A stretch of DNA of 64,000 bases from IMG/VR virus record IMGVR_UViG_3300010368_000011, positions 1 to 64,000 of that record; one strand, written 5' to 3'. Position numbers and translations under genes: made by a program. Shown here one piece after another: positions 1 to 47,537 of the stretch; the stretch's first letter is position 1, and each line of letters opens with the position of its first letter. Under the pieces are notes generated by a model. The model was not told where the DNA came from, made no database searches, and worked only from the letters and a program-made list of their open reading frames with translations. This DNA comes from a virus. Lineage: Duplodnaviria; Heunggongvirae; Uroviricota; Caudoviricetes.

Positions 1-3000
1 CCATGGAATCAGTGCAACCGTTGGGTCATATAATTGATTAGATATTTGATAAGCCGATAGCAACTTACCACTAATGGTGCTTCTTTTGTTTTTAACCCAA
101 AAATAATATCGACGTGACCCGTCGCTTTGGGTGACTTCTGTATATGAGGGGCTAGCCGCATTGAAAATGATCACATCATCTTCATCACCACTGTATTCAG
201 TCGGTGGTACGCGAGATTCAATCCATTCATATATATCAATGCTTCTGTTGGTTATTGTGATTATATTAGACAGTAACAATGCATTCGATAATATAGAAAC
301 AGTCTCAGGACCATTCAACAGAGTATAGGTAACGTCATTACCAGAAACCACATCAACCATACCACTGATACGTTGACCATCTCTGGTTTCTACCGTTATG
401 GATTGATTGACTACTATATTATGACCAGCCTCAACTACAGATTTGATACTGATAGTATTTGCAACTGCACTTGAACTGATTGCGTAACTCTTCAGCTTGC
501 CCCAGTTCTCGGATGATTCTTTTAAAGTGAGAGACTGATTTAAATAATCTTGGTATTCTCTGTTTGATGTGTTCCACCAAATGGTTCCAACTCTACTTGA
601 CGACCATTCATATCCTTCGTCCGTGGTTGCTACACCTTTGTTGTAATATGCTGGATCAAACGAGGTTTCGATATCGATCTGTGAATAGGCTATTGGCTCA
701 TGTAACCCGTTAATAGGATCGTAATGAAACATCTTCTTGTCTAATACTTCGCCTTCCAGTACAACTGCTCTGATATCATAATCGGGTGATGTCGCATTTC
801 CTTTGATTGGGAATTTGAAATTACCTTGGCGTGGTGGAACAATCCATTTGGCATGAGTTTGGGAACGATCATAATCACTGATCGTTACAACACCCGGTTC
901 ATTGGTTGACCCGAATATCACTGATTGGATTCTATTATTGAAATCGGTTTCAAGGATATTAAATCGAACTGGATTATCAAATGAGGTTTTACCAAATTCG
1001 CCCTCTTTCCATGCCCAACATTCGAGAATTTCCAACGGGATATTATTATTCTTAGAGATTGAAAAACCAGATACAGCACGACGAGTGCCTTTCTCTCTAA
1101 TAGAATTCTTGTGAAATTCTAAAGACATAACCTCATTGATATTCATTTCTCTGGCATAATCGCGATAGTACCAACCATAAAGATTGAAGGCTTGATCACG
1201 GAATTTTGGATCAGAAACAGGGTCCAACATATCGTAATAACGAATGAAGTCCTTGGTGCTCTTCTCAAAGTTCGGAACAAGCTTATCACCAGACGCAATA
1301 TATCCGGGTGTATCCAAACGGCCTGCCCACTCTTTTGTTCTTAGTGATTTGATTTCAAGTCTTTTCTGACGCAAACCAGTAAATGGATCATAAACAAGAT
1401 CATTGAATCTAGTTCTATTAGAAATGAACACAGCGTGTTGTATATCTACAATAGTCGCTCTAAGACCGAAAATCAAATGAGGAGATTTAACCGATATGTC
1501 ACCATCAAAACGATACGTGTCAAAATCAGTTATAGGCATTCCAGCAATATCAAGTAGACTGTATCCACCATATACTAACTTCTGAATATTATTCATATGA
1601 CCAAAAGTCGATTGCAGATTCAACGAATTACCAGACGCAACATCCACAAAGATTTGCCCAGTAGTAGCCGTCTGTGACCACACCGCAAATCGTTTGGCAA
1701 CATCTATCCAATCATCATTCTCATAAACCCAACCATTGTCAGTATAATTTCTTCCGTAATCTACAATGAATTCAACAACTTCTTGTGGAGAATTGAATTG
1801 ATGACCATACTGATAGTCGATAATGTTATTCGTTCCAGTCTCATAGTAGAAGTAATCGGTTTCCCCAATTGAGAATTTGCGAGAACGTGTACTAGGATTA
1901 GTATATGTTGTAGTCAATTGAGCAGTTAGTTGTTGACCGGTTGTTATATTTGGATCAATGATCTGGAAACTAGTTGGGCTTAATATATTAATATATTGAT
2001 CTTTGACTTTGAATCCATCAACAAGAACTGAGAATTTTGCTAAATCGTTCGTTCCGCCTAATTTGAATTTGGTCAAGGTGTATGTATCTATACCAGTCTG
2101 AACAGTATAGGTTTCGTTAAACGTAGTTCTTCCAGCAAGAGATGGACGAGCACCATAATTGATTCTAAAGAACGAGTTCGTATAATCATAACCATACACT
2201 TGGTATTTTGAACCACGTTTGAGAATTTGAATACCACTATGGAATTTATTCTCAATCGGTAATCCTTTGTGTAATGTTAACTGCACATCTTCAAAAGGGA
2301 TTTCCACACCGGATGAAGTTTTGATTACTGTTGCAGCTTTATCAATAAAACCATTGGTTTTCCAACCGAGTGATACATTGGATTGTCGAATCGTGTCAGC
2401 AAACTCTTTCGAATTTATTCTCGACATATTTAAATTCTCGGCAACCCATGCGTTAATGCCCGGATTGGAATAATTAATGTCTTCCGAATGAATCTTTAAA
2501 TCATCGATCTTCGGACGGCGAAGAGTTCCATCATCAATCTTAATAGGTCCACCAAACAAATTGGTATCCATACCAATAGTGAATGAATAATCAGACCATA
2601 GGAATTCCACATATCTACCCGGCTTCATCAGATAACCAGCTAGTGCATATGCAAATGGCCCAAGATGTGAATTATGGAATGAGTTCTCAATCGGACTACA
2701 ATCACCATACTTCCAATTTTGTTCAGGGGAAATTAATTGATCAAGACTTACTACACCGGCTGTCACTGGATCAATTAGATCACCATTAACATCAACAGGG
2801 ATGGGTGCTGTGGCGCTCAATAGGAATTTAGTAGGAATGGTGACCCCTTCGGCAGCTATCAACGTGCCGGTCTTCAGATCAGCCCACATGGCATTAGCAG
2901 AACCATATCTCCCGTTGCCATCAGCATCCGTGCTGGTCACCGTATAAGCATCATCCCACCAAGCGGGCTTTATCGTGAAACCTAATATTTCCCATGGGGC

Positions 3001-5742
3001 AACATGTGGACGATCAGTACCATATACGCGTTTGTATATTCCGGTCCAATGACCCTCAAAACCAGCCGAAGTATAATTCCATGTCCACTTGTTAGCCTCG
3101 GAATAACCATCATTGGTTACAGGGTCTAACCCCTGATCGACATACCATCTTTCAAACTCACGACGAATCACTGTGGTATAATCTGAAGACTGGTAATCAA
3201 ATACTCCTGATCTATCAAAAGCCTTTAATTCAAAAATGTCGAAACCATTGAAGGTATGCTTTGTGTCATCGGTAAGATTTTTGACAATATCACTGGCCAC
3301 AGCTTTTTTAGTAACCCATGCGGAATTACTATAAGTCGCATACATCCCATGAGTTTTAGAATACACTCTATCACCTTCAGTTGGTGACAAGGCAGTATAA
3401 TCATTTACAATATTATCAACATCAGGCACATTGGTAATAATGGTTTTATTACCAATGTGATTCTTCAATGAGAATTGATGACCATCCAAAAATGCACTCT
3501 CGGCCACTGATTCTAATTTACGTTTCGCTGGTACAGAAGCAAAGAACCTATTTTCAAGATTAATGATGACATCATCGCGCTCATCATTATATGCTAACAT
3601 CACACTTCCATCATGTTTCAATATATAAGTTATTGAATTTGTTGTGAATTTCCGTGGAGTATAAGCGGGTGCGGCACCAGTTCTGGCGGCTGAAGGGGGA
3701 ATGAGTATTGGTGATACGGCTGCTGTCGTTTCGTTGACATACGTTCCCATCCCGGCATTCCAAAATGGACTCTCTTCAGTAGAGAAGAGAATGTTTTGAG
3801 TTAATACCTTGTCCACCATCTCTGTGGCAGTCAGTCCGTTCAATGTCCCTTGTGGAGTTGAATAACTACCCGCATCCCAAATGGTGCTCAATCGACGAAC
3901 AAACCGTTTCATGAATCGGTTATATTCAAATGACATATTACGAATGGCTTCTGCCAGATCATAATCATCGTTCTGAATTAATGATAAAGGAATCAATAAT
4001 GATCCTTCAGTATCGATAATCGTTGCACCAGAAACCGGATCACGACTGGTCCAACGATAATTATTATTCCCCAATGGAATACCATCAGCATTTGTGTCTA
4101 AAATATTTCTATAATGGTTGATTATATTACTTCTGCTGATACTAGTGATAATATCATGGTTCGGGTTATTACTCAGATTTAGAGGAACACCTTTCTGGGT
4201 TTGATCATACACGAGCGGTGTGGTTGATCGGTTCCATACTGAATGAAGCTGACCGGTCCATGTGTCCTTGAAAAACCTATAACCCAGAACAGATATATTA
4301 TTTTTAGTATAAACAGTACTTTCAAGAGTAAGGTCAAATATAATTTCACCAGTACTATCATATGTCAACGGAAATCCAAGAACAGTATCATCGGAATTAG
4401 TTCTTGTTTGTTTGTATTCAAATAACGAGTTACCGTTATAAGTGTCAACAAATGTTGATGCCTTGCTAATACCACCGTTATCAACCATGTATATTTCATA
4501 TTTCGGTTGAACATTATTCAATCCAAAAATCTTATAAGATGCAAGTGCATCAGAAATATCAGTTGTTTCGATTGAACTCCAATATTCAAGTAATGGTCTT
4601 TTTGATTGCTTACCATTGTATTCTGTTTTATCGATTGCACTTAAATCTTCAAAGTGAACCCACCAGTTTTCTTTCTGCCATGGATCATCATTAACGGTGA
4701 AATCAATTGCAGCATAACGATATACAGGATCATTACCGGTTGGAACACCAATCGCGGTCATGCTAGCTATATCATTATCAGAATCCAGAGTATCAAAATA
4801 TGGAATGGTTGAATAAACCAATGGTGCCCAACCCTCATTTGTATAAAGAAGGAATTTACGGGATGCTGGTGATCGAGAATCTTCCCAGATCATGCCTTCG
4901 ACCGGATTATCAGGTTCACGATTAGAAATAACCGGAACTTTTGATAACCACCGGCCTGCTTCACCACTATAATGATATATCACTGGTCGTTGATAGTTCT
5001 TACCGGTGCGAGCGATGTAAAGATATGTACCAGCCGCAATATCAGATGGAACAGCGTCTTCTGATGCGTATGGCGCGATATTAACCACCTGCCATGCAGT
5101 TCCATCCCATTGGTAAATTGTACGCTGTGCGTCTGTACAATCCTCGCGAAGATCGCCTGTGAGAGTACCGGTCGGTTCATAGCTAGCCAACGGTGCTAAT
5201 CGATCACTGGAATCCAGAATTACTGCTTTCTTGGTGAATGTTCCATTTGCTTCAACATAATGAAGAACCGTCTGCGATGCTGTTGGTTCTTTTACAATGT
5301 ATTCGCCAGTATCGTCCGCTGTTCCATCTCCGGTCCAGAAGTATTTGGAAAAATTAACCCATTTGTCAATATTAATTGGTGGAGTGAAAGAAAAGTAATC
5401 ACATTCAAATAATCTATTTTCATCACTGGTCAATCCACCATTGGCCAAGATGTGACCAATCAAGTCAGCATAAAAAGCACCATTGGCGACTGAACCATCT
5501 TTATTATATGAAACGACACATGGAGATAATTGAAATCGATCATCCAACGGGTTACTATTGGTGATAAATGGTGATCTATCTTTAGTGGATTGGGAGATAT
5601 CGGTGTCGTCACCGATTTGTCCTTCAATGCGTTCAAACGCTTCTGGTTCAAACGCTAAATCATCTGTAGCTCCTAGGAGACGCTTGTTTACATCTGTCTG
5701 GAATACTTTTGGTAGCGACGAAAATACTCTACGATCTTTCAT
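1..5742 (-). CDS. giant virion structural protein (tail-fibre/adhesin-like), >1900 aa, C-terminus runs off window start
   Basis: single uninterrupted minus-strand frame from ATG at 5742-5740 (first ATG after in-frame TAA, AAGG RBS) to position 1; no competing complete ORF >70 aa in 5.7 kb; aromatic YW/WW repeat motifs like those in the sheath gene at 50321. Confidence 0.7.
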   Translation of the reverse strand, partial: MKDRRVFSSLPKVFQTDVNKRLLGATDDLAFEPEAFERIEGQIGDDTDISQSTKDRSPFITNSNPLDDRFQLSPCVVSYNKDGSVANGAFYADLIGHILANGGLTSDENRLFECDYFSFTPPINIDKWVNFSKYFWTGDGTADDTGEYIVKEPTASQTVLHYVEANGTFTKKAVILDSSDRLAPLASYEPTGTLTGDLREDCTDAQRTIYQWDGTAWQVVNIAPYASEDAVPSDIAAGTYLYIARTGKNYQRPVIYHYSGEAGRWLSKVPVISNREPDNPVEGMIWEDSRSPASRKFLLYTNEGWAPLVYSTIPYFDTLDSDNDIASMTAIGVPTGNDPVYRYAAIDFTVNDDPWQKENWWVHFEDLSAIDKTEYNGKQSKRPLLEYWSSIETTDISDALASYKIFGLNNVQPKYEIYMVDNGGISKASTFVDTYNGNSLFEYKQTRTNSDDTVLGFPLTYDSTGEIIFDLTLESTVYTKNNISVLGYRFFKDTWTGQLHSVWNRSTTPLVYDQTQKGVPLNLSNNPNHDIITSISRSNIINHYRNILDTNADGIPLGNNNYRWTSRDPVSGATIIDTEGSLLIPLSLIQNDDYDLAEAIRNMSFEYNRFMKRFVRRLSTIWDAGSYSTPQGTLNGLTATEMVDKVLTQNILFSTEESPFWNAGMGTYVNETTAAVSPILIPPSAARTGAAPAYTPRKFTTNSITYILKHDGSVMLAYNDERDDVIINLENRFFASVPAKRKLESVAESAFLDGHQFSLKNHIGNKTIITNVPDVDNIVNDYTALSPTEGDRVYSKTHGMYATYSNSAWVTKKAVASDIVKNLTDDTKHTFNGFDIFELKAFDRSGVFDYQSSDYTTVIRREFERWYVDQGLDPVTNDGYSEANKWTWNYTSAGFEGHWTGIYKRVYGTDRPHVAPWEILGFTIKPAWWDDAYTVTSTDADGNGRYGSANAMWADLKTGTLIAAEGVTIPTKFLLSATAPIPVDVNGDLIDPVTAGVVSLDQLISPEQNWKYGDCSPIENSFHNSHLGPFAYALAGYLMKPGRYVEFLWSDYSFTIGMDTNLFGGPIKIDDGTLRRPKIDDLKIHSEDINYSNPGINAWVAENLNMSRINSKEFADTIRQSNVSLGWKTNGFIDKAATVIKTSSGVEIPFEDVQLTLHKGLPIENKFHSGIQILKRGSKYQVYGYDYTNSFFRINYGARPSLAGRTTFNETYTVQTGIDTYTLTKFKLGGTNDLAKFSVLVDGFKVKDQYINILSPTSFQIIDPNITTGQQLTAQLTTTYTNPSTRSRKFSIGETDYFYYETGTNNIIDYQYGHQFNSPQEVVEFIVDYGRNYTDNGWVYENDDWIDVAKRFAVWSQTATTGQIFVDVASGNSLNLQSTFGHMNNIQKLVYGGYSLLDIAGMPITDFDTYRFDGDISVKSPHLIFGLRATIVDIQHAVFISNRTRFNDLVYDPFTGLRQKRLEIKSLRTKEWAGRLDTPGYIASGDKLVPNFEKSTKDFIRYYDMLDPVSDPKFRDQAFNLYGWYYRDYAREMNINEVMSLEFHKNSIREKGTRRAVSGFSISKNNNIPLEILECWAWKEGEFGKTSFDNPVRFNILETDFNNRIQSVIFGSTNEPGVVTISDYDRSQTHAKWIVPPRQGNFKFPIKGNATSPDYDIRAVVLEGEVLDKKMFHYDPINGLHEPIAYSQIDIETSFDPAYYNKGVATTDEGYEWSSSRVGTIWWNTSNREYQDYLNQSLTLKESSENWGKLKSYAISSSAVANTISIKSVVEAGHNIVVNQSITVETRDGQRISGMVDVVSGNDVTYTLLNGPETVSILSNALLLSNIITITNRSIDIYEWIESRVPPTEYSGDEDDVIIFNAASPSYTEVTQSDGSRRYYFWVKNKRSTISGKLLSAYQISNQLYDPTVALIPW

Positions 5743-5777
5743 TGGATATGATACAGCCTTTTGATTTATTTATTAGG

Positions 5778-6047
5778 CTAATCGTCTTCAATTAATGAAA
5801 TTCGCTGCCTTATTCTAATCTTAGACGATTTGTCTTCAATATGACCAATATCAAAGAAATATAATCTTTGTTCCACCTGTTGAACAAAGGCTTCTAATTG
5901 AGTCATCATAGTTGAATGTGGCAGAGAAGCCGCCATCGACATCTTTTCGTAAAGAGTGTCCAGCAGCTTCTCTGTTTCTTGTTTGTTGCACTGAGATAAT
6001 GTCTTATACTCAGTGTCAGATATTTTTAAAGATGGTTCCATAGTCAT
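5778..6047 (-). CDS. hypothetical protein (89 aa), upstream of giant fibre gene
   Basis: ORF track; same strand as structural operon. Confidence 0.4.
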   Translation of the reverse strand: MTMEPSLKISDTEYKTLSQCNKQETEKLLDTLYEKMSMAASLPHSTMMTQLEAFVQQVEQRLYFFDIGHIEDKSSKIRIRQRISLIEDD

Positions 6048-6559: not shown

Positions 6560-7327
6560 TTAAAGTGGAGTACGTGTTGCCGCAGGGAAAACGCTACACG
6601 TTTGCACTCTATGGGTGTCCATATCAACCTGAACCACATAACCGGGATAAGTGACTGTATCATCGCCGTCTACATAACTCGTGTCTTCGGTCCCATATAC
6701 ACTCGTGGTATATTTCCCTACAAACACTATAATAGGATAATTTGCGTTCCTGTTGTAAACTGTTTTTGCGACCCATGTGTTATCTAATGAATATGTTGTT
6801 CTGACATAAGCAGTAGCAATCGTGGCCGGGTCAATCAATACAACATCATTGACGATTGAATTCTGAATTTCTTGTCTTACGGATTGAGATAATGTTCCAC
6901 CGAACCTAGTAGTCGATACTGCGTTATCCCAATCGGCATCAAGGAAATCAACACCACCGGTCAATGCGAATTCAGCTTCAATTCTAGCTTCCATGGCATC
7001 TTTCAGTGCAGCGAGGATTGTAGCTGTCGAAGTACCAGTAGGAAAAGAACCAGTGTGGGTTAATTTAACCGAAACATCTACTGTAGACGTAATAGTTTTA
7101 GTATCTGAAATCTGAGTGGTGTATATTGCAGTGGCAGCAGCGCTTGGTGTATCGCTATTGGTTGGTTCACCTTCGCCGTTTGGTTCACCACCATCGTCTG
7201 GGTTCCATCCACCAGCGGTATTGACCAAATACGTTTCAATTTCTGACAATGCCGAATCATAATCATAATTCGGTGCTTTGGTCATCAACGAAATAGTTGC
7301 GTTGTTTAACCATTCGTTTTTAATCAT
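6560..7327 (-). CDS. hypothetical structural protein (255 aa), Thr/Ser-rich
   Basis: ORF track; ATGA-type overlap with next gene. Confidence 0.55.
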   Translation of the reverse strand: MIKNEWLNNATISLMTKAPNYDYDSALSEIETYLVNTAGGWNPDDGGEPNGEGEPTNSDTPSAAATAIYTTQISDTKTITSTVDVSVKLTHTGSFPTGTSTATILAALKDAMEARIEAEFALTGGVDFLDADWDNAVSTTRFGGTLSQSVRQEIQNSIVNDVVLIDPATIATAYVRTTYSLDNTWVAKTVYNRNANYPIIVFVGKYTTSVYGTEDTSYVDGDDTVTYPGYVVQVDMDTHRVQTCSVFPAATRTPL

Positions 7328-7743
7328 CTCTTATCTCGTTTCAATAAAGTTTTAATAACCGTTTCGAAATTAAGACCAGCTCGGCGACTTCTTTCTTGAT
7401 TAGGTTTTGCTGAAGATTTTGGTTTAGGCTTTTCGTCAATGGTTTCGGGCTTAGCCGAATCATCGCGCTTCCAACCATCGTCCGTATCGAAGGATGCCCG
7501 TTTGGGACTACCAGTACGACTTCTTTTATTGATAACAAAATTTTGTTTTGTATTATTGCGTTTAATAAAAACACGAATAAGAGTTTGTTCGCCTGCAACA
7601 TCTTCATACGAGATTACAAACGGTTCACCATTCGAATCAAGATCGACTTGGCCAGCAGAATTTAGTTCATCAACGTATCGTGTGGCACCTGATGAATGCT
7701 GCTGTAATGAGATATACCGGTTTTCCATGAATGTATTTATCAC
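7324..7743 (-). CDS. hypothetical protein (139 aa) with basic C-terminal tail
   Basis: ORF track; start/stop overlap with 6560..7327. Confidence 0.5.
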   Translation of the reverse strand: MINTFMENRYISLQQHSSGATRYVDELNSAGQVDLDSNGEPFVISYEDVAGEQTLIRVFIKRNNTKQNFVINKRSRTGSPKRASFDTDDGWKRDDSAKPETIDEKPKPKSSAKPNQERSRRAGLNFETVIKTLLKRDKR

Positions 7744-22978: not shown

Positions 22979-23059
22979 GGACACGTTCCCGAGCGGTCAA
23001 AGGGAATTGGCTTTTAACCAATTGCGCAAGCTTCGTGGGTTCGAATCCCACCGTGTTCA
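22979..23059 (+). tRNA. class-II-shaped (Tyr-like scaffold) tRNA with apparent UUU anticodon
   Basis: acceptor GGACACG/CGTGTTC, D-arm TTCCCGAGCGGTCAAAGGGA as in bacterial tRNA-Tyr, perfect anticodon stem AATTGG/CCAATT with loop CUUUUAA, 12-nt variable region, canonical T-arm, A73-CCA. Confidence 0.5.
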
Positions 23060-23062
23060 CCA

Positions 23063-27001: not shown

Positions 27002-27143
27002 TAGGGGTTGCAAACATTATCTGGAACCCCTAAGTATCTGTGTATGGGAGCTGCCAAGCTGTTCTGCCTCATGCGGGAGTTGTCCGAATAGGATAGTTCC
27101 CGCACCAATGCTCCGGTGATCTTAATAGGATTATCGGGGCACC

Positions 27144-27177
27144 AATGAAAGCCCTCGGTTAATAGCCGGGGGCTTTC
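27144..27177. repeat. 34-nt hairpin element AATGAAAGCCCTCGGTTAATAGCCGGGGGCTTTC (copy 1 of 2; copy 2 at 44703..44736)
   Basis: exact 34-nt identity between the two loci; 12-bp stem with 7-nt loop. Confidence 0.6.
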
Positions 27178-27192
27178 TCCATTTATGCTGTA

Positions 27193-27249: not shown

Positions 27250-28044
27250 ATGTCACCGGACCTTGGCAATCGTATGAAGAATTACGAAGCGTTTGAAACG
27301 TGTCGTAGAGTTGATGGTTCTCGTCCGGTGTATGTTCGGCTTGATGGTCGCTCCTTCTCCACCTTCACCAGTGGCATGACGAAGCCGTTCGATCAACGGA
27401 TGACCGAAGCCATGAATGAAACCACCAAGTACATGGTGCAAAAAACCAATTCCGTTATCGGTTATGTTCAATCAGATGAAATCAGTTTGATGATCACACC
27501 GACAACCGATACATCTCAATTGATGTTTGGTGGCAAAGTTCATAAAATGGTTAGCGTTTTTGCATCCATGGCCACGGCGAAACTCAACGCGTGTATTCGT
27601 GGGTGGGATGGGTATGAAGATCGCCTGCCCTGCTTTGACGCCCGTGTGATGAACCTGCCTGACCGTATGGAAGCGGTGAACATGCTTCGTTGGCGTTATA
27701 TGGATTGCACTCGTAATGCTATTCAATCAATCGCCCAGTCTATGTTCGATCATGGTGAACTACAGGGCATACAAACGGTTGATCTTATTGAGAAAATCCG
27801 AATGGCGGGTGTTGATCCATATTCATTCCCAAGTCGCAGCATGTATGGATCGTTCGTGCGTAGTGAAAAAGAATATAAATCATTAACGCCAGCTGAGTTG
27901 GCCCATATTCCAGAACACAAGCGCCCAACTGGTCCGTTTTTGCGTAGCGTGCTTAAGGTATACTCGACTGATATGTTTATACAACTGGTCAATCCGGTTG
28001 AAGTGATTTTTGATAATGCGGTTCCTATAATCAATAAAAGTTGA
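27250..28044 (+). CDS. Thg1-like protein (tRNA-His guanylyltransferase / 3'-5' nucleotidyltransferase family)
   Basis: N-terminal NYEAFE...VYVRLDGRSFSTF, GYVQSDEIS, FGGKVHKMVSVFASMATAKLN, CFDARV...LRWRYMDCTRNA track the conserved Thg1/TLP blocks; GAGGGA RBS. Confidence 0.7.
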   Translation: MSPDLGNRMKNYEAFETCRRVDGSRPVYVRLDGRSFSTFTSGMTKPFDQRMTEAMNETTKYMVQKTNSVIGYVQSDEISLMITPTTDTSQLMFGGKVHKMVSVFASMATAKLNACIRGWDGYEDRLPCFDARVMNLPDRMEAVNMLRWRYMDCTRNAIQSIAQSMFDHGELQGIQTVDLIEKIRMAGVDPYSFPSRSMYGSFVRSEKEYKSLTPAELAHIPEHKRPTGPFLRSVLKVYSTDMFIQLVNPVEVIFDNAVPIINKS

Positions 28045-40444: not shown

Positions 40445-40518
40445 TCCTCGCGGTCCAGAAAGGCACTGGAGTCAGGCTGTTAACCTGAATGCTGTAGGTT
40501 CGAATCCTACGCGGGGAG
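40445..40518 (+). tRNA. tRNA-Asn(GUU)
   Basis: acceptor TCCTCGC/GCGGGGA, D-arm TCCAGAAAGGCACTGGA, anticodon stem TCAGG/CCTGA loop CTGTTAA, T-arm GTAGGTTCGAATCCTAC, G73-CCA. Confidence 0.75.
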
Positions 40519-40529
40519 CCAATCATTGT

Positions 40530-40602
40530 TTGGGTGTAGCTCAGTTGGTAGAGCGCTTCGCTGTTAACGAAGATGTCGGGGGATCGTGACCCTCCACCCA
40601 AG
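40530..40602 (+). tRNA. second tRNA with GUU anticodon (Asn-like) carrying a swapped T-loop (A54/U58: ATCGTGA)
   Basis: acceptor TTGGGTG/CACCCAA, D-arm GCTCAGTTGGTAGAGC, anticodon stem CTTCG/CGAAG loop CTGTTAA, T-arm GGGGGATCGTGACCCTC, G73-CCA. Confidence 0.6.
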
Positions 40603-40629
40603 CCACTTCTTTCATTTGAGGAAAACATC

Positions 40630-43310: not shown

Positions 43311-43673
43311 ATGCTGTTGTACCACATCACTCATCAAAACAGTTTGGACTCCATTCTTAAGCGCGGTATTGTACCTAAGTATGAATGTCTGCGCCGTGGT
43401 CTTACGTGTTATAGAAGCCGTGATCGTTTTGTGTGGTTGACTGATAATCCTCAATATATAATTGAAACACAAGCTGCATCCGGTTGGCCTACCTGTATTC
43501 TTCAGATCGCATTAACAGAAAATAGCCATTGCGTGGTCCCGGCACTATCACCATCGCCATATGATAAAGGGTCAGCTTGGATCACCCGAACGCATGAATT
43601 CATAACGGAACGAGTGCACCCCGATCAGATCACCGATATGTGGAAAATGAAAAATATTAAAAAACGCAGTTAG
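43311..43673 (+). CDS. hypothetical protein (120 aa)
   Basis: ORF track. Confidence 0.5.
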   Translation: MLLYHITHQNSLDSILKRGIVPKYECLRRGLTCYRSRDRFVWLTDNPQYIIETQAASGWPTCILQIALTENSHCVVPALSPSPYDKGSAWITRTHEFITERVHPDQITDMWKMKNIKKRS

Positions 43674-43679
43674 GGGGTT

Positions 43680-44700
43680 TACATATCCGCGAAGCCTGCT
43701 AAATATGTTCTCAACGAATGAGTGCTCTCGGTTTTACCGCCGCTGAGAAAAATAAAAAAAAGTGCAGTGACAGGGTTTACAGATCGAAAAAACCTGTTAT
43801 ATATACATCTTCATGACGCGGGGCCGCAAGCCGCCACGTTGTTACTAGAGGCCACGATGCTTCTAGATATATGTTATAATGAATGGGCGGTATAGCGTCC
43901 ATTAAGAATAAGTCGAGTAATCGACCCAAAGCAGGGGTTACATCTCTGCACCACCGTAAGGATGGCTCATCTATACAAGTCCAAGTCTGCCGGTAACGGT
44001 GTGTCTTCACAAAGGCACGAAGCAGTAAAAACAGGTTAATGAGATTCGAGGCCAACTGGTTAGAATCGTTCAAGGGTAGCTCCTTTGAGTAATTAACACA
44101 GCAACTGTTTGAATGTGAAGACTAATGGATAGTGATCTAGTATCTTCTTCGGGAGATATTATAGTCCGAACCTTAGCGGGACAGGGCGGGTCGCAATGTT
44201 AAAGGCATGGAGTTGGTGATGTAATAGTCATCAAATACGTGTTCTTGAAACATGGTTTAGTAGTCTTAGCGGGCGAAAAACAGGAGGCGTGTTGTATTTT
44301 GACTCTAACAAGGGTCGAAGCAACTGGATTAGCACGTCTTAGTAATTGCAAAGAAACCACTCCAAGGTAACAAAAAGCAAAGTCTAATCCATCGTTGTAT
44401 GAAAGGTGCTTAAAGCCTTACCCCTCGGGGAATAAGGTGCGCCGGAGGTCGCAAGCCGAAGGTGTTTGTTGGAGAAAGTTTCATAGCCATTTAGCGATGG
44501 TTAACTGTTGTAAAAGGCAGATGGGACAGAAACCAATGAGTAGTACAGCGTGATAGATGAAACGCCACATCTTAAAAAAGGCAGCACTGGTGGATACAGG
44601 AAGACCTTAACCGGCTCCTGTGGATGTGAAATTAACAAGCGGGTGCAACTGCTTGGTACGATTTGAAGGCCACTATTTTTGCCGCTAGTCTCACGGCGAA
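43680..44700. ncRNA. candidate large structured RNA (about 1 kb, ORF-free, GC-enriched, many GNRA/UUCG-type hairpins); strand undetermined
   Basis: no plausible ORF on either strand over ~1 kb in an otherwise gene-dense phage; local GC visibly higher than flanks; ends at repeated 34-nt hairpin 44703..44736. Confidence 0.4.
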
Positions 44701-44702
44701 CT

Positions 44703-44736
44703 AATGAAAGCCCTCGGTTAATAGCCGGGGGCTTTC
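44703..44736. repeat. 34-nt hairpin element, copy 2 (identical to 27144..27177); abuts the stop codon of 44735..45634
   Basis: exact repeat; 12-bp stem. Confidence 0.6.
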
Positions 44737-45634
44737 ACTGTTTGGGTTCATCATATTTCTTTCTGATGTATTCAATTATGTCAGCGGATTTTCGCAACCC
44801 TAATTTCTTACACAACACCGTGAACTCGTTGGACTTCATGTTCTTCTTGCGAGAATTATGAATGGTGGAATCAAGTGATCTAACATGATCACCAACGTGC
44901 CACGGATGATCTAGTATATTATTCTTAATTCGGCGCGCATCTTTCGATAGGGTGACATGTAATGGCGCTGATAATAATTCCACATATGGCTTCAGATAAT
45001 TCACAGTGATGCCATGATACCTATCACTCGTGTCTACCGATGAATCACTCTTAAGCCGTGATAGATCAGTCAGCGCTTTAGCTTTATTGCGACTATTATA
45101 TGCATCAGCATTATCATAAACCGACACGGGTATATTATTCTTCTTCGCGGCGATGATGATCTTACGTATTTTGGATTTCTGTTTTTCGGAACCGGTGTCC
45201 TGATTCTTGTCCATCTTGTCCAAGTTTGCGTACAGGTGAATTTCGGTTATATATTTTACGGCGTTAGGAATAGCAGGCTTGTCTGAGAAGATACGATCTT
45301 CTGATTCGAACTTATCAGGCCGCGTTGTGCGAAATGATGGACCCCAATAATCAATAGGCTTTCCGGTAAAACCGTCTGCCATCAGTTTTTGTCCATCCAG
45401 CACAACATATCCAGCACTACTGGCATGGCGAATATCACGCTCATAAAAGCCGGATAGGGTTCTGGTAGTTGATAGATAAAAGGGTTCACCGCCAGAAAAA
45501 TCATTTTCCGAACTGGTTCCCATATCACTGGTGAGAATGAATTGATTATCATCAAGGATCGATAGCATACTGAACACATCGGTTCGGTGGAACAATATAG
45601 AACTGATGCCTTCTAATAGTTGGTTAATTTTCAT
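44735..45634 (-). CDS. hypothetical protein (299 aa), member of MKI(N/Q)QL(L/F)E tandem paralogue family
   Basis: ORF track; N-terminus shared with 45631..46017 and 46022..46501. Confidence 0.55.
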   Translation of the reverse strand: MKINQLLEGISSILFHRTDVFSMLSILDDNQFILTSDMGTSSENDFSGGEPFYLSTTRTLSGFYERDIRHASSAGYVVLDGQKLMADGFTGKPIDYWGPSFRTTRPDKFESEDRIFSDKPAIPNAVKYITEIHLYANLDKMDKNQDTGSEKQKSKIRKIIIAAKKNNIPVSVYDNADAYNSRNKAKALTDLSRLKSDSSVDTSDRYHGITVNYLKPYVELLSAPLHVTLSKDARRIKNNILDHPWHVGDHVRSLDSTIHNSRKKNMKSNEFTVLCKKLGLRKSADIIEYIRKKYDEPKQ

Positions 45635-46017
45635 GGATCACCATGAATATCAATACAGGTGACGCCCGGACCATAAGCACGAACAATGGTTGGTGTATGT
45701 CGGGCAAGATCGGTCATTGTTTCGTGAACTTCACCATCATCAACATCCTGTTGTCTACAGGCTAAGCAATCTGTATATGCATACAGTGAATATCCACATA
45801 ATGGTATGCTACGAGAATATGTGATGCCTTGTTCTTGTTTGAATTCATCGTGAATATAGATGTATGGATTGAAAACGTAGAAATTACCTTCTTGATCAAC
45901 CACGGCTCTGGCAAAGTGTTCAACTCGTTTACTGAGAAATGATTGAAGCCGCCTTGAAGAAGGGTTCTTCATGAATGCGTCATTTTCAAATAATTCGAAG
46001 AGTTGTTGGATTTTCAT
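45631..46017 (-). CDS. hypothetical protein (128 aa), MKIQQLFE family
   Basis: ORF track. Confidence 0.5.
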   Translation of the reverse strand: MKIQQLFELFENDAFMKNPSSRRLQSFLSKRVEHFARAVVDQEGNFYVFNPYIYIHDEFKQEQGITYSRSIPLCGYSLYAYTDCLACRQQDVDDGEVHETMTDLARHTPTIVRAYGPGVTCIDIHGDP

Positions 46018-46021
46018 AATT

Positions 46022-46501
46022 CTAATCTTTGATATTTAGTTTAGAGTAAGATAATATTTTATCCATCTGATCAATGATATCAAATGATTCATCTTCTTCT
46101 AATGCAATGATGCCTTCTGAAATCCGTTTCCGTTCCAAATCGATCCTTATTATGTATTGGTCTATATTTTCTATTACTTCCGTTGCGATAACTTCTTCAG
46201 CTTCATCGTAACTCGCGTGGCCGTTAATTCTATCATTGTATTGAATTATCTTATATCTATTTCTTAATTTATTGGTGTCAAATACAAAGATACCACCCAA
46301 CCCGTATTCTTCATGATTATGAGTGAACCTTTCTGCTACCTTATAGTCTCTGGTTGTCCTAATACCGTGTGGCTCGCCCGGAAGGCCGAAATATTCCCCT
46401 TCGCTCATCGTGTTTGTTAATATAATATTGCAGGTAGAATAAAAATCAGTACCATGGAACAATGGTTGTCTGTTATTTTCGAAGAGTTGCTGGATTTTCA
46501 T
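46022..46501 (-). CDS. hypothetical protein (159 aa), MKIQQLFE family
   Basis: ORF track. Confidence 0.5.
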   Translation of the reverse strand: MKIQQLFENNRQPLFHGTDFYSTCNIILTNTMSEGEYFGLPGEPHGIRTTRDYKVAERFTHNHEEYGLGGIFVFDTNKLRNRYKIIQYNDRINGHASYDEAEEVIATEVIENIDQYIIRIDLERKRISEGIIALEEDESFDIIDQMDKILSYSKLNIKD

Positions 46502-46878
46502 ACAGTGAATTGACTTTTATCAAATGGTATAACAAAAACAAAGCTGCCTATATACTCTCCATCTTCTTGTGCCATGCTAGTCATTCTAACATATATACCG
46601 GTTTTGTTTTTGTTGACGAAGTATACATTACCGATTGGAATATCTTTGTCTTCCAGTTCCGACACAGCATCATAGAACCGGACATCTTTCTTAGCTACAA
46701 ACGTTTTATTATCTTTATGAAGGATAACTATCCCTAATTCCATTTTGATCTTTTGTACAATATTCAGCGGGACTGCTTTGTTGTTTTCAATAAAAACAAA
46801 AGGCCGCTCTGTGCTTTCCTTGATCAAATCTAAGAGTTTCATGATAATATCCTGTTGTACCGTTTTATTTATCTCCAA
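46498..46878 (-). CDS. hypothetical protein (126 aa)
   Basis: ORF track. Confidence 0.5.
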   Translation of the reverse strand: MEINKTVQQDIIMKLLDLIKESTERPFVFIENNKAVPLNIVQKIKMELGIVILHKDNKTFVAKKDVRFYDAVSELEDKDIPIGNVYFVNKNKTGIYVRMTSMAQEDGEYIGSFVFVIPFDKSQFTV

Positions 46879-47537
46879 AGCTCATCAAACATACCACGCA
46901 TGATTCGTTTACAACTGGTGGACTTGTTAGACTGATGATCGTTAACCTGATCGTCTTGAAAACGATACGTGCGAATCTTATCGGCTCTCATACCAGAACC
47001 AATCTTTTCGCGCCGATCCTGATTCGTACCGTCCATTGAATCGCTATGAGACAACTGATCCAATTTTTCACACAATTCTTTCATGGCGGTGGTTTCGTTG
47101 GATGTTCGACTCTTACCTTGAATGGTTTGAACGATGCCGGTTGGAAGATGATAAAGCCGTAAGCAATTTTGATGCTTGTTGCGATTCTGTCCACCATTCC
47201 CTGTACCGCTGAACCATTCCTTATAGAAGTGCTCTGTATCGCGTAAGGCGTACCGTGGGTCAGCTTCGGCCTTATCAATGACGGCAACGGTCACGGTAGA
47301 CGTATGAACGCGTCCACGCTTCTCTGTGGGAGGAACACGTTGAATACGATGGCCACCTGATTCTTGATTTAATTTTTTGTGTTTGTCGGGTAGTACGAAA
47401 CTGATCTGATTATCAGACACATGTTTCTCGAAACTTCAACCGAACCGATTGAAAAGCTTAACGTATGCGGATGCCATGTCTGTCATGAATAGGCGGGCAT
47501 CTTCGCCACCTTCACCGGGTCTAATTTCTAGTTTCAT
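46869..47537 (-). CDS. class I peptide-chain release-factor homologue lacking domain 1 (PrfH/RF1-like: PxT-type PPT motif, GGQ motif), interrupted by in-frame TGA at 47438..47436
   Basis: AAGGAGG RBS + ATG 47537; N-part MKLEIRPGEGGEDARLFMTDMASAYVKLFNRFG, TGA, then same frame SFEKHV..SGGHRIQRVPPTEKRGRVHTSTVTVAV...FSGTGNGGQNRNKHQNCLRLYHLPTGIV...DKIRTYRF; colinear with RF1 domains 2-4; the TGA aligns with the conserved Trp of RF1 (YSRYAEARRW). Confidence 0.7.

Follow-up and report, generated by a model that had tools for sequence, protein, structure and literature searches.

A GOLLD RNA gene without an embedded tRNA, very probably a new member of the family, in an uncultivated jumbo myovirus

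GOLLD RNAs are among the largest non-coding RNAs of bacteria and phages, and it has been recognized since 2025 that they build cages of RNA alone that exceed the ribosome in size. Further marks of the family are homo-oligomers of 10-14 subunits, expression as a discrete RNA that increases during lysis, and a location in phages or prophages, mostly close to tRNA genes. The family, Rfam RF02032, was reportedly described by Weinberg et al. in 2009. Here, we analyzed a stretch of 64,000 nucleotides (nt) from the IMG/VR virus record IMGVR_UViG_3300010368_000011 (positions 1 to 64,000; hereafter, the window), in which a + strand gene for a GOLLD RNA, a new member of this known family, very probably lies in the gap at 43674..44734. 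A sequence-only reading of the same DNA had proposed a large structured non-coding RNA in this region, with GOLLD as its first guess, and this proposal was borne out by a full-length RF02032 match above threshold together with a covarying 5' domain.

The env-38 GOLLD is a homo-14-mer nanocage (Kretsch et al. 2025, PMC12286853; PDB 9MEE per PMC12990946), with caps made of 5' domains, rings made of 3' domains, and an intervening linker that faces the cavity (PMC12286853). The GOLLD of S. agalactiae is a homo-12-mer (PDB 9L0R) without P9, P11a-c, and P21b (PMC12990946). In the GOLLD of a Mycobacterium transfer RNA (tRNA) array, a tRNA-Phe is located in the J13/15 linker (Morgado et al. 2020, cited in PMC12990946). 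The Rfam model of GOLLD covers the 3' domain only, owing to the known variability of the 5' domain (PMC12286853). ROOL RNAs, by contrast, have intertwined halves instead of separate domains (PMC12286853).

The whole window was scanned against Rfam 15 with cmscan at the curated gathering thresholds, and GOLLD was the only non-tRNA match. Positions 44284..44697 (+) matched RF02032 over model positions 1-416 of 416 with 168.6 bits (gathering threshold 150, E 1.4e-45), which answers the covariance-model search suggested by the sequence-only reading. Since the length of the Rfam model corresponds to the GOLLD 3' region, we asked if the preceding 600 nt are part of it as well. The conserved structured RNA found here is about 813 nt long (43885..44697) and has two domains joined via a short linker. 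Like env-38 and the RF02032 family, the window RNA thus combines a full-length match to the 3' model with two domains (5' about 400 nt, 3' about 414 nt) and the same linker position, whereas it differs from canonical GOLLDs by a score about 130 bits lower and by a 5' domain that is shared only over the first 50 positions or so.

The window belongs to a large or jumbo myovirus that lacks close relatives in culture; the best tail-sheath identity among GenBank phages was 34%. When the region was compared with 50,697 GenBank phages, nothing matched at near identity, and a distant search yielded no more than a core match of 74 nt in Phaeobacter phage MD18. Searches of IMG/VR with the flanking proteins (299 and 120 aa) retrieved no relatives; the tail sheath query found a 335-kb jumbo phage contig (L013/L130) with 82% sheath identity, which was the sole real relative found in IMG/VR. 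The L013 GOLLD is syntenic with the window element and scores 177 bits on RF02032, and that of MD18 scores 170 bits. The window and L013 elements align from the promoter-like motif to the terminators with a mean column identity of 76%, and compensatory changes are visible between them, 40 of which are double-sided (27 + 13).

In the window, L013, and MD18, the start of the 3' domain departs from the Rfam consensus. The corresponding subclass pattern GTGTTGTATTYTGNNNCYAACA retrieved 64 IMG/VR loci, as well as 12 contigs from bacterial genomes or metagenome-assembled genomes of several phyla. All 15 subclass elements sampled scored 159-198 bits on RF02032, and canonical GOLLDs with the consensus motif scored about 300 bits. 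A DNA pattern built on the canonical motif was also tried and set aside, as it retrieved only canonical GOLLDs of about 300 bits with 5' domains that could not be aligned with the window. A single metagenome scan with the loop motif of the window lineage added one sequence, L155. Additionally, MD18 (L012) was found to carry an unannotated GOLLD at 3464..4302, a region in which only a tRNA-Arg is listed in its record. Immediately after this GOLLD comes a permuted alpha-type transfer-messenger RNA (tmRNA) at 4513..4928, and a beta-type tmRNA (7158..7524) lies close to the GOLLD of locus L118.

The 3' domain, or ring domain, lies at 44284..44697 (+), as delimited by cmscan and alignment A4. Among its 116 consensus pairs in A4, 89 showed double-sided compensatory changes, and 96.0% of the cells were paired, compared with 37-43% after the partners were slid and with none of 500 shuffles reaching the observed values. 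In the window copy, 98 of 102 pairs in this domain are standard. Many of the conserved pairs are G-U pairs, which would be A-C on the opposite strand.

The 5' domain, which is the cap domain in the solved structures, occupies 43885..44283 (+) and begins with P1 GGGCGGUAUAGCGUCC. It was delimited by a profile and by alignments A2/A3 of 20-22 homologous elements from phage contigs, whose consensus structure was predicted by RNAalifold. In the alignment of 21 elements, 74 of the 92 consensus pairs had at least one double-sided compensatory change. The cells of this domain were paired in 96.2% of cases versus 34-42% with partners slid by 1-3 columns, and no shuffle (0/500) reached any observed measure. 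These results supply the covariation analysis across related phages that had been called for, as both domains covary and the shuffle and slide controls were passed. The first conserved 5' block was present in 23 subclass loci at the same distance of 390-400 nt from the 3' domain. An nhmmer profile of the 5' domain matched the window with 178 bits (E 5e-53), MD18 with 97 bits, and nearly all subclass loci (60+) over the full length, and it matched canonical GOLLDs over positions 4-53 only. The covarying alignment and the profile match across subclass loci therefore identify 43885..44283 as the GOLLD 5' domain. For 43885..44700, the predicted fold of the + strand has -254.5 kcal/mol (z = -4.37, 0/20 shuffles as low), compared with z = +0.78 for the - strand, so the structure is strand-specific.

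Within the 5' domain, the window copy carries several lineage-specific features. An inserted hairpin with a cUUCGg tetraloop at 44139..44162 (+), which includes the motif TCTTCTTCGGGAGA highlighted by the sequence-only reading, folds at -9.6 kcal/mol and has no counterpart in the other 20 sequences of A3, which have a gap at columns 334-360. At 44171..44180 (+), a first CUUAGCGGG (UUAGCG) loop takes the place of a C-GCAA-G hairpin (A3 columns 367-378), and at 44264..44273 (+) a second CUUAGCGGG loop replaces the last C-GCAA-G hairpin of the 5' domain (A3 columns 462-473). Both loops are common only to the window, L013, and the metagenomic L155 among the sequences compared. The subclass also has a GAAA-capped hairpin GUCCGAAAGGAU, which is apparently equivalent, as judged from its sequence, to L11a of env-38, a conserved GAAA loop that makes no contacts. 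Unlike env-38, the window copy lacks this hairpin and has UA in place of GC in L21b, and it adds the UUCG hairpin and a structured leader of 70 nt.

Residues forming the bridges between subunits were taken from a supplementary table (PMC12286853, Supplementary file 1), and the homologous positions were read in an alignment of 66 unique GOLLDs. The L14-equivalent loop CUAACAAG at 44305..44312 (+) contains adenosines that correspond, by this alignment, to A447/A448 of env-38 (A-minor bridge B6), and the A-rich loops for the A-minor bridges B6 and B10 are both present in the window copy. The linker J13/15 spans 48 nt at 44338..44385 (+) without a tRNA, and its GC at 44377..44378 is the partner of L20 in bridge B7. 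The L20 hairpin GGUCGCAAGCC at 44447..44457 (+), in which the sequence-only reading had noted the motif GTCGCAAGCCGA, has a loop GC (44450..44451) that complements the J13/15 GC of the neighbouring chain. This complementarity was reportedly predicted as a pseudoknot in 2009 and forms the intermolecular bridge B7 in env-38 (PMC12286853). The pair covaries in other GOLLDs, with UC x GA in env-38, GA x UC in L139, and GG x CC in L155.

The contacts between half-shells could be compared in the same way. The L21a hairpin CCAUUUAGCGAUGG at 44487..44500 (+) has the loop UUUAGCGA with a self-complementary GC at the position of B8 (env-38 G656-C657'), where other GOLLDs have AU, UCGA, or GGCC. The L21b hairpin CUGUUGUAAAAGGCAG at 44505..44520 (+) has the loop GUAAAA (44510..44515), with UA at the position where most GOLLDs have GC (B9; env-38 G675-C676'), and this dinucleotide is still self-complementary. 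Across the 66 GOLLDs, the B9 dinucleotide is GC in most, five lineages have CG, UA, AU, or GU instead, and self-complementarity is kept throughout. The L21b loop is invariant in the alignment of the structure paper, so that B9 was untestable there by covariation (PMC12286853); the present comparison supplies covariation for this self-kissing loop (GC, CG, UA, AU, GU). Taken together, the required base complementarity of the mapped ring contacts is kept in the window copy. The window RNA resembles env-38 and the RF02032 family in its complementary L20 and J13/15 and its self-complementary L21a and L21b, in addition to its location in a phage with a tRNA-rich genome.

The two domains are surrounded by putative transcription elements. 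A promoter-like TTTACA-N16-18-TATATATA is found at 43776..43805 (+), with a predicted start at about 43812, and just upstream of its -35 element an A-rich tract GAGAAAAATAAAAAAAAG at 43745..43762 (+) may represent an UP element; L013 is A-rich at the same place. TTTACA-N17-TATATA likewise precedes the L013 GOLLD (L013 5843..5872), and TTGACA/TTTACA...TATAnT lies just upstream of P1 in many subclass members. An alternative extended -10 element, TGTTATAAT at 43872..43880 (+), is a perfect match located 4 nt before P1 and is probably too close to P1 to serve; the -10 element of other subclass members lies 14-35 nt before P1. The putative 5' leader at 43812..43884 (+) forms two small hairpins in the fold of 43806..43884, one at 43815..43841, which contains the previously noted motif GCCGCAAGCCGCC, and one at 43845..43866. 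It is mostly missing or different in L013 (gap in alignment A1) and is outside the conserved GOLLD core.

Downstream of the 3' domain, the 34-nt repeat AATGAAAGCCCTCGGTTAATAGCCGGGGGCTTTC forms a GC-rich hairpin of 14 bp at 44703..44736 (both strands), which folds at -26.5 kcal/mol. The observation that the region ends in the same 34-nt hairpin as is found near 27144 was correct, as AATGAAAGCCCTCGGTTAATAGCCGGGGGCTTTC is exactly repeated at 27144..27177 and 44703..44736, with 0 copies expected by chance. The stop codon (44735..44737) of the convergent 299-aa gene on the - strand overlaps the foot of the hairpin at 44703..44736, which is thus likely, from its sequence, to be a bidirectional terminator for GOLLD (+) and for this gene (-). 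We infer that GOLLD would be transcribed rightward from its own sigma-70-like promoter, starting near 43812 and ending at this hairpin, and that the primary transcript would be about 930 nt long. If so, Rfam marks only 414 of these roughly 930 nt, and annotation should treat the 5' domain, leader, promoter, and terminator as parts of the same gene.

Embedded tRNAs are frequent in the relatives of this RNA. ARAGORN identified a tRNA or tRNA-like insert at +62..+140 of the 3' domain in about 40 of the 53 unique subclass members, including an insert with the anticodon tca in L013 and a tRNA-Arg in MD18. The window copy resembles MD18 and the IMG/VR GOLLDs with a tRNA in the linker in the start of its 3' domain (GUGUUGUAUUYUG...CYAACA), its 5' domain of 400 nt, and the score range of 159-198 bits. 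It differs from them in its 48-nt linker without a tRNA, even though its nearest relative L013 has one; no tRNA or recognisable remnant was found in this linker by ARAGORN or in alignments A1 and A4. Among the linker inserts of the other loci (L091..L154), the anticodons were very mixed, with suppressor-like tca (L013/L130) and cta (L098), and for the inserts of L099, L105, L111, L117, L141, L151, and L153 ARAGORN gave 'anticodons' of 2 or 4 nt. Embedded tRNAs and variable 5' domains have already been described for GOLLD, and the traits of the window copy are variation within this known kind.

The abundance of these inserts, together with the 'inhibited storage' of the embedded tRNA proposed in a 2026 review (PMC12990946), would fit a GOLLD whose main role is to store its tRNA or to act as a scaffold for its processing, rather than a cage with a function of its own. 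We consider this explanation very unlikely, as the structure of the window copy is fully maintained around a linker that holds neither a tRNA nor a remnant of one, and several inserts elsewhere cannot be ordinary decoding tRNAs because of their 2- or 4-nt 'anticodons'. The window copy, which has no tRNA, demonstrates that GOLLD can do without an embedded tRNA in the linker.

Several observations weigh against a complete and functional GOLLD and would suit a slightly less probable explanation, namely a decaying, non-functional remnant for which selection has been lost in this phage. The RF02032 score is only 19 bits above the threshold and low in comparison with the 300 bits or so of canonical GOLLDs; the linker tRNA has been lost; and the near-invariant GUCCGAAAGGAU hairpin (A3 columns 223-236) has been lost from the window copy, with an altered version in L013. 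In the 5' domain, 67 of 79 alignable pairs are standard in the window copy and 12 are nonstandard, and 13 further pairs fall in elements that the window lacks. Apart from decay, the evidence for a GOLLD has limits of its own. The bridge mapping covers B6-B10 and relies on the sequence alignment to env-38, in whose text numbering 17 nt are missing; global numbering failed for this reason and was replaced by local offsets, which were validated for 12 of 12 residues. Furthermore, a consensus promoter and terminator scanner called neither the GOLLD promoter nor the terminator, the latter because the U tract UUUCACUGUUU is weak, and the promoter and transcript ends are read from sequence.

The modest score is normal for a widespread subclass because its sampled members, like the window copy, score in the same range, and the loss of the GAAA hairpin is not disqualifying because the S. 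agalactiae GOLLD also lacks P11a-c (PMC12990946). Similar to the S. agalactiae RNA, the window copy is reduced in peripheral helices, a kind of loss that, as the S. agalactiae case shows, is tolerated and changes the subunit number; unlike that RNA, which has lost P21b and is chromosomal or prophage-borne in Firmicutes, it keeps P21b and resides in an uncultivated jumbo myovirus. Against decay, 96% of the 3'-domain pairs are intact, the 40 double changes relative to L013 are compensatory, the contact nucleotides remain complementary even through the double change from GC to UA, and promoter-like and terminator elements have been kept. A remnant is therefore very unlikely.

It is even less probable that the region encodes a different large RNA (ROOL, HEARO, OLE, a group I/II intron, RNase P, or tmRNA) or a new class that is merely GOLLD-like. 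No Rfam match to any of these families was found in 43500..44800 at the gathering thresholds, on either strand, and the alternatives that the sequence-only reading had kept beside GOLLD (ROOL, HEARO, group I/II intron, RNase P, and tmRNA) fall away accordingly, for the 5' part also at E <= 1. The 5' 600 nt could nevertheless be taken for something else, as 43500..44320 matched no Rfam family even at E <= 1 and the 5' half of the element resembles only L013 by BLAST. However, in 60+ loci this part runs on into the GOLLD 3' domain and is inherited together with it, its first 50 positions or so match canonical GOLLDs, and a variable 5' domain is what the Rfam model leaves out (PMC12286853). Compared with ROOL, the window RNA shares the phage niche near tRNAs and presumably a similar cage-forming action, whereas its sequence and fold are unrelated.

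The gap itself spans 1061 nt (43674..44734) between a + strand open reading frame (ORF) at 43311..43673 and a convergent - strand ORF at 44735..45634, and no other true stretch of the window lacking ORFs of at least 100 aa is as long. A six-frame check found no ORF >98 aa inside it, confirming the absence of a plausible ORF on either strand over about 1 kb. The only listed ORF, at 43777..44073 (98 aa, antisense), had been called atypical; it is present, and its counterpart in the closest relative L013 is unrelated (BLASTP E 2.4), which marks it as spurious. A hidden or frameshifted gene, the finding that would have spoken against an RNA, was sought and rejected, as the antisense ORF lacks conservation as well as any Pfam or PHROG match. 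A further candidate, 1..6015, was rejected as a 6-kb ORF-free region: an ORF of at least 1923 aa at 1..about 5770 (-) fills it and continues past the left window edge, and the region only looks empty because the ORF lister skips this ORF.

Two compositional claims of the sequence-only reading held in part. The GC content of the gap is modestly raised (0.450, the 92nd percentile among the 1061-nt windows of this DNA, with 0.409 for the whole window), whereas 'clearly above the flanks' was overstated in view of 0.439 in the left and 0.417 in the right 1 kb. A stronger signal than GC content is the purine fraction of the + strand, 0.56 (98th percentile), with a GC skew of up to +0.27. The four named GNRA/UUCG-capped motifs are all present (43823, 44421, 44143, and 44448), but as a plain count the stems are not significant: the gap has 5 GNRA/UNCG-capped hairpins of 3 bp versus 2.5 +/- 1.5 in shuffles, and 106 of 1000 shuffles reach 5. 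The least probable explanation, a frameshifted or unusual-code protein gene or a DNA element (a replication origin or a packaging site, for instance), which could draw on the antisense ORF and on the origins sometimes held by large intergenic gaps of phages, can be dismissed almost entirely, because the substitutions are pairwise compensatory and not codon-periodic, the ORF is unconserved, and the strand-specific structure with its G-U pairs indicates selection on RNA and not on duplex DNA.

The genomic context is that of a phage, with genes encoding a tail sheath, a cell-wall hydrolase, and other phage proteins. As expected by the sequence-only reading for a GOLLD, tRNA genes are close: 15 are found in the 64 kb, the nearest at 40445..40605, 3.1 kb upstream. 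One of them, tRNA-Lys(ttt) at 22979..23062 (+), was called at 84 nt, which is long for a class I tRNA, and it may hold an insertion or intron. Upstream of GOLLD, 43311..43673 (+) encodes a 120-aa 'LYHIT' protein (start MLLYHITHQNSLDSIL) without a family match, which is 40% identical to the product of L013 6838..7188. It was considered as a GOLLD-associated protein and rejected: the ORF lies upstream of GOLLD in the window, downstream in L013, and in none of the other GOLLD loci examined, so that its adjacency reflects lineage synteny and not a general partnership.

Downstream, 44735..46501 (-) contains three tandem genes whose products (299, 128, and 159 aa) start with MKI[NQ]QL[LF]E and match no Pfam or PHROG family; the 159-aa and 299-aa products are weakly similar (E 3e-4), and the 128-aa product is 59% identical in L013. 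At 46869..47420 (-), 2 kb from GOLLD, a 183-aa protein with an RF-1/GGQ release-factor domain is encoded (PHROG 19918, E 1e-31; RF-1 domain PHROG 3122, E 1e-5), and it is 70% identical in L013. A Thg1-family protein (tRNA-His guanylyltransferase family, PF04446, E 7e-29) is encoded at 27250..28044 (+). Just upstream of this gene, 27003..27182 (+) consists of a promoter-like GGGGTTGCAA-N17-TAAGTAT followed by a non-coding stretch of 140 nt, whose fold (-73.6 kcal/mol, z = -7.7) has three long perfect hairpins and ends in the second copy of the 34-nt terminator hairpin. No Rfam family was found in 27003..27182, where E <= 1 gave only a chance-level match, and this stretch could be a small RNA or a leader.

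By homology to the env-38 14-mer and the S. agalactiae 12-mer, copies of the window GOLLD would come together, with no protein involved, as two half-shells that make up a closed cage. In such a cage, the 5' domains would form the caps, the 3' domains would form the rings, and the linker would point into the cavity. L20 would pair with J13/15 of a neighbour (GC x GC), L21a (GC) and L21b (UA) would join the half-shells, and the A-rich loops would provide A-minor contacts. By analogy, the window RNA most likely acts by forming a cage, because the complementarity of the mapped ring contacts is kept. The number of subunits may differ from 14, since the GAAA hairpin is lost and the 5' loops are altered and peripheral helices set the subunit number (PMC12990946). 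Additionally, the UA-UA contact of L21b between half-shells is weaker than a GC contact.

What such a cage would do for the phage can be suggested only tentatively. It is possible, if rather unlikely, that in the lytic phase the cage contains or scaffolds cargo related to translation, for example tRNAs or ribosomes. More doubtful still is a specific proposal for this phage, in which the cage would differ from that of env-38 in subunit number or would open more easily, perhaps acting on ribosomes or tRNAs with the translation genes of the phage (15 tRNAs, Thg1, and the RF-1-domain protein). The window copy can be regarded as a naturally minimised jumbo-phage GOLLD, with no embedded tRNA, no GAAA hairpin, and altered 5' loops, and its comparison with L013 separates dispensable parts from the fixed ones, which are the inter-subunit contacts. 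If the proposal is true, the window copy and the tRNA-bearing L013 GOLLD would constitute a natural experiment on the roles of the linker cargo and L11a.

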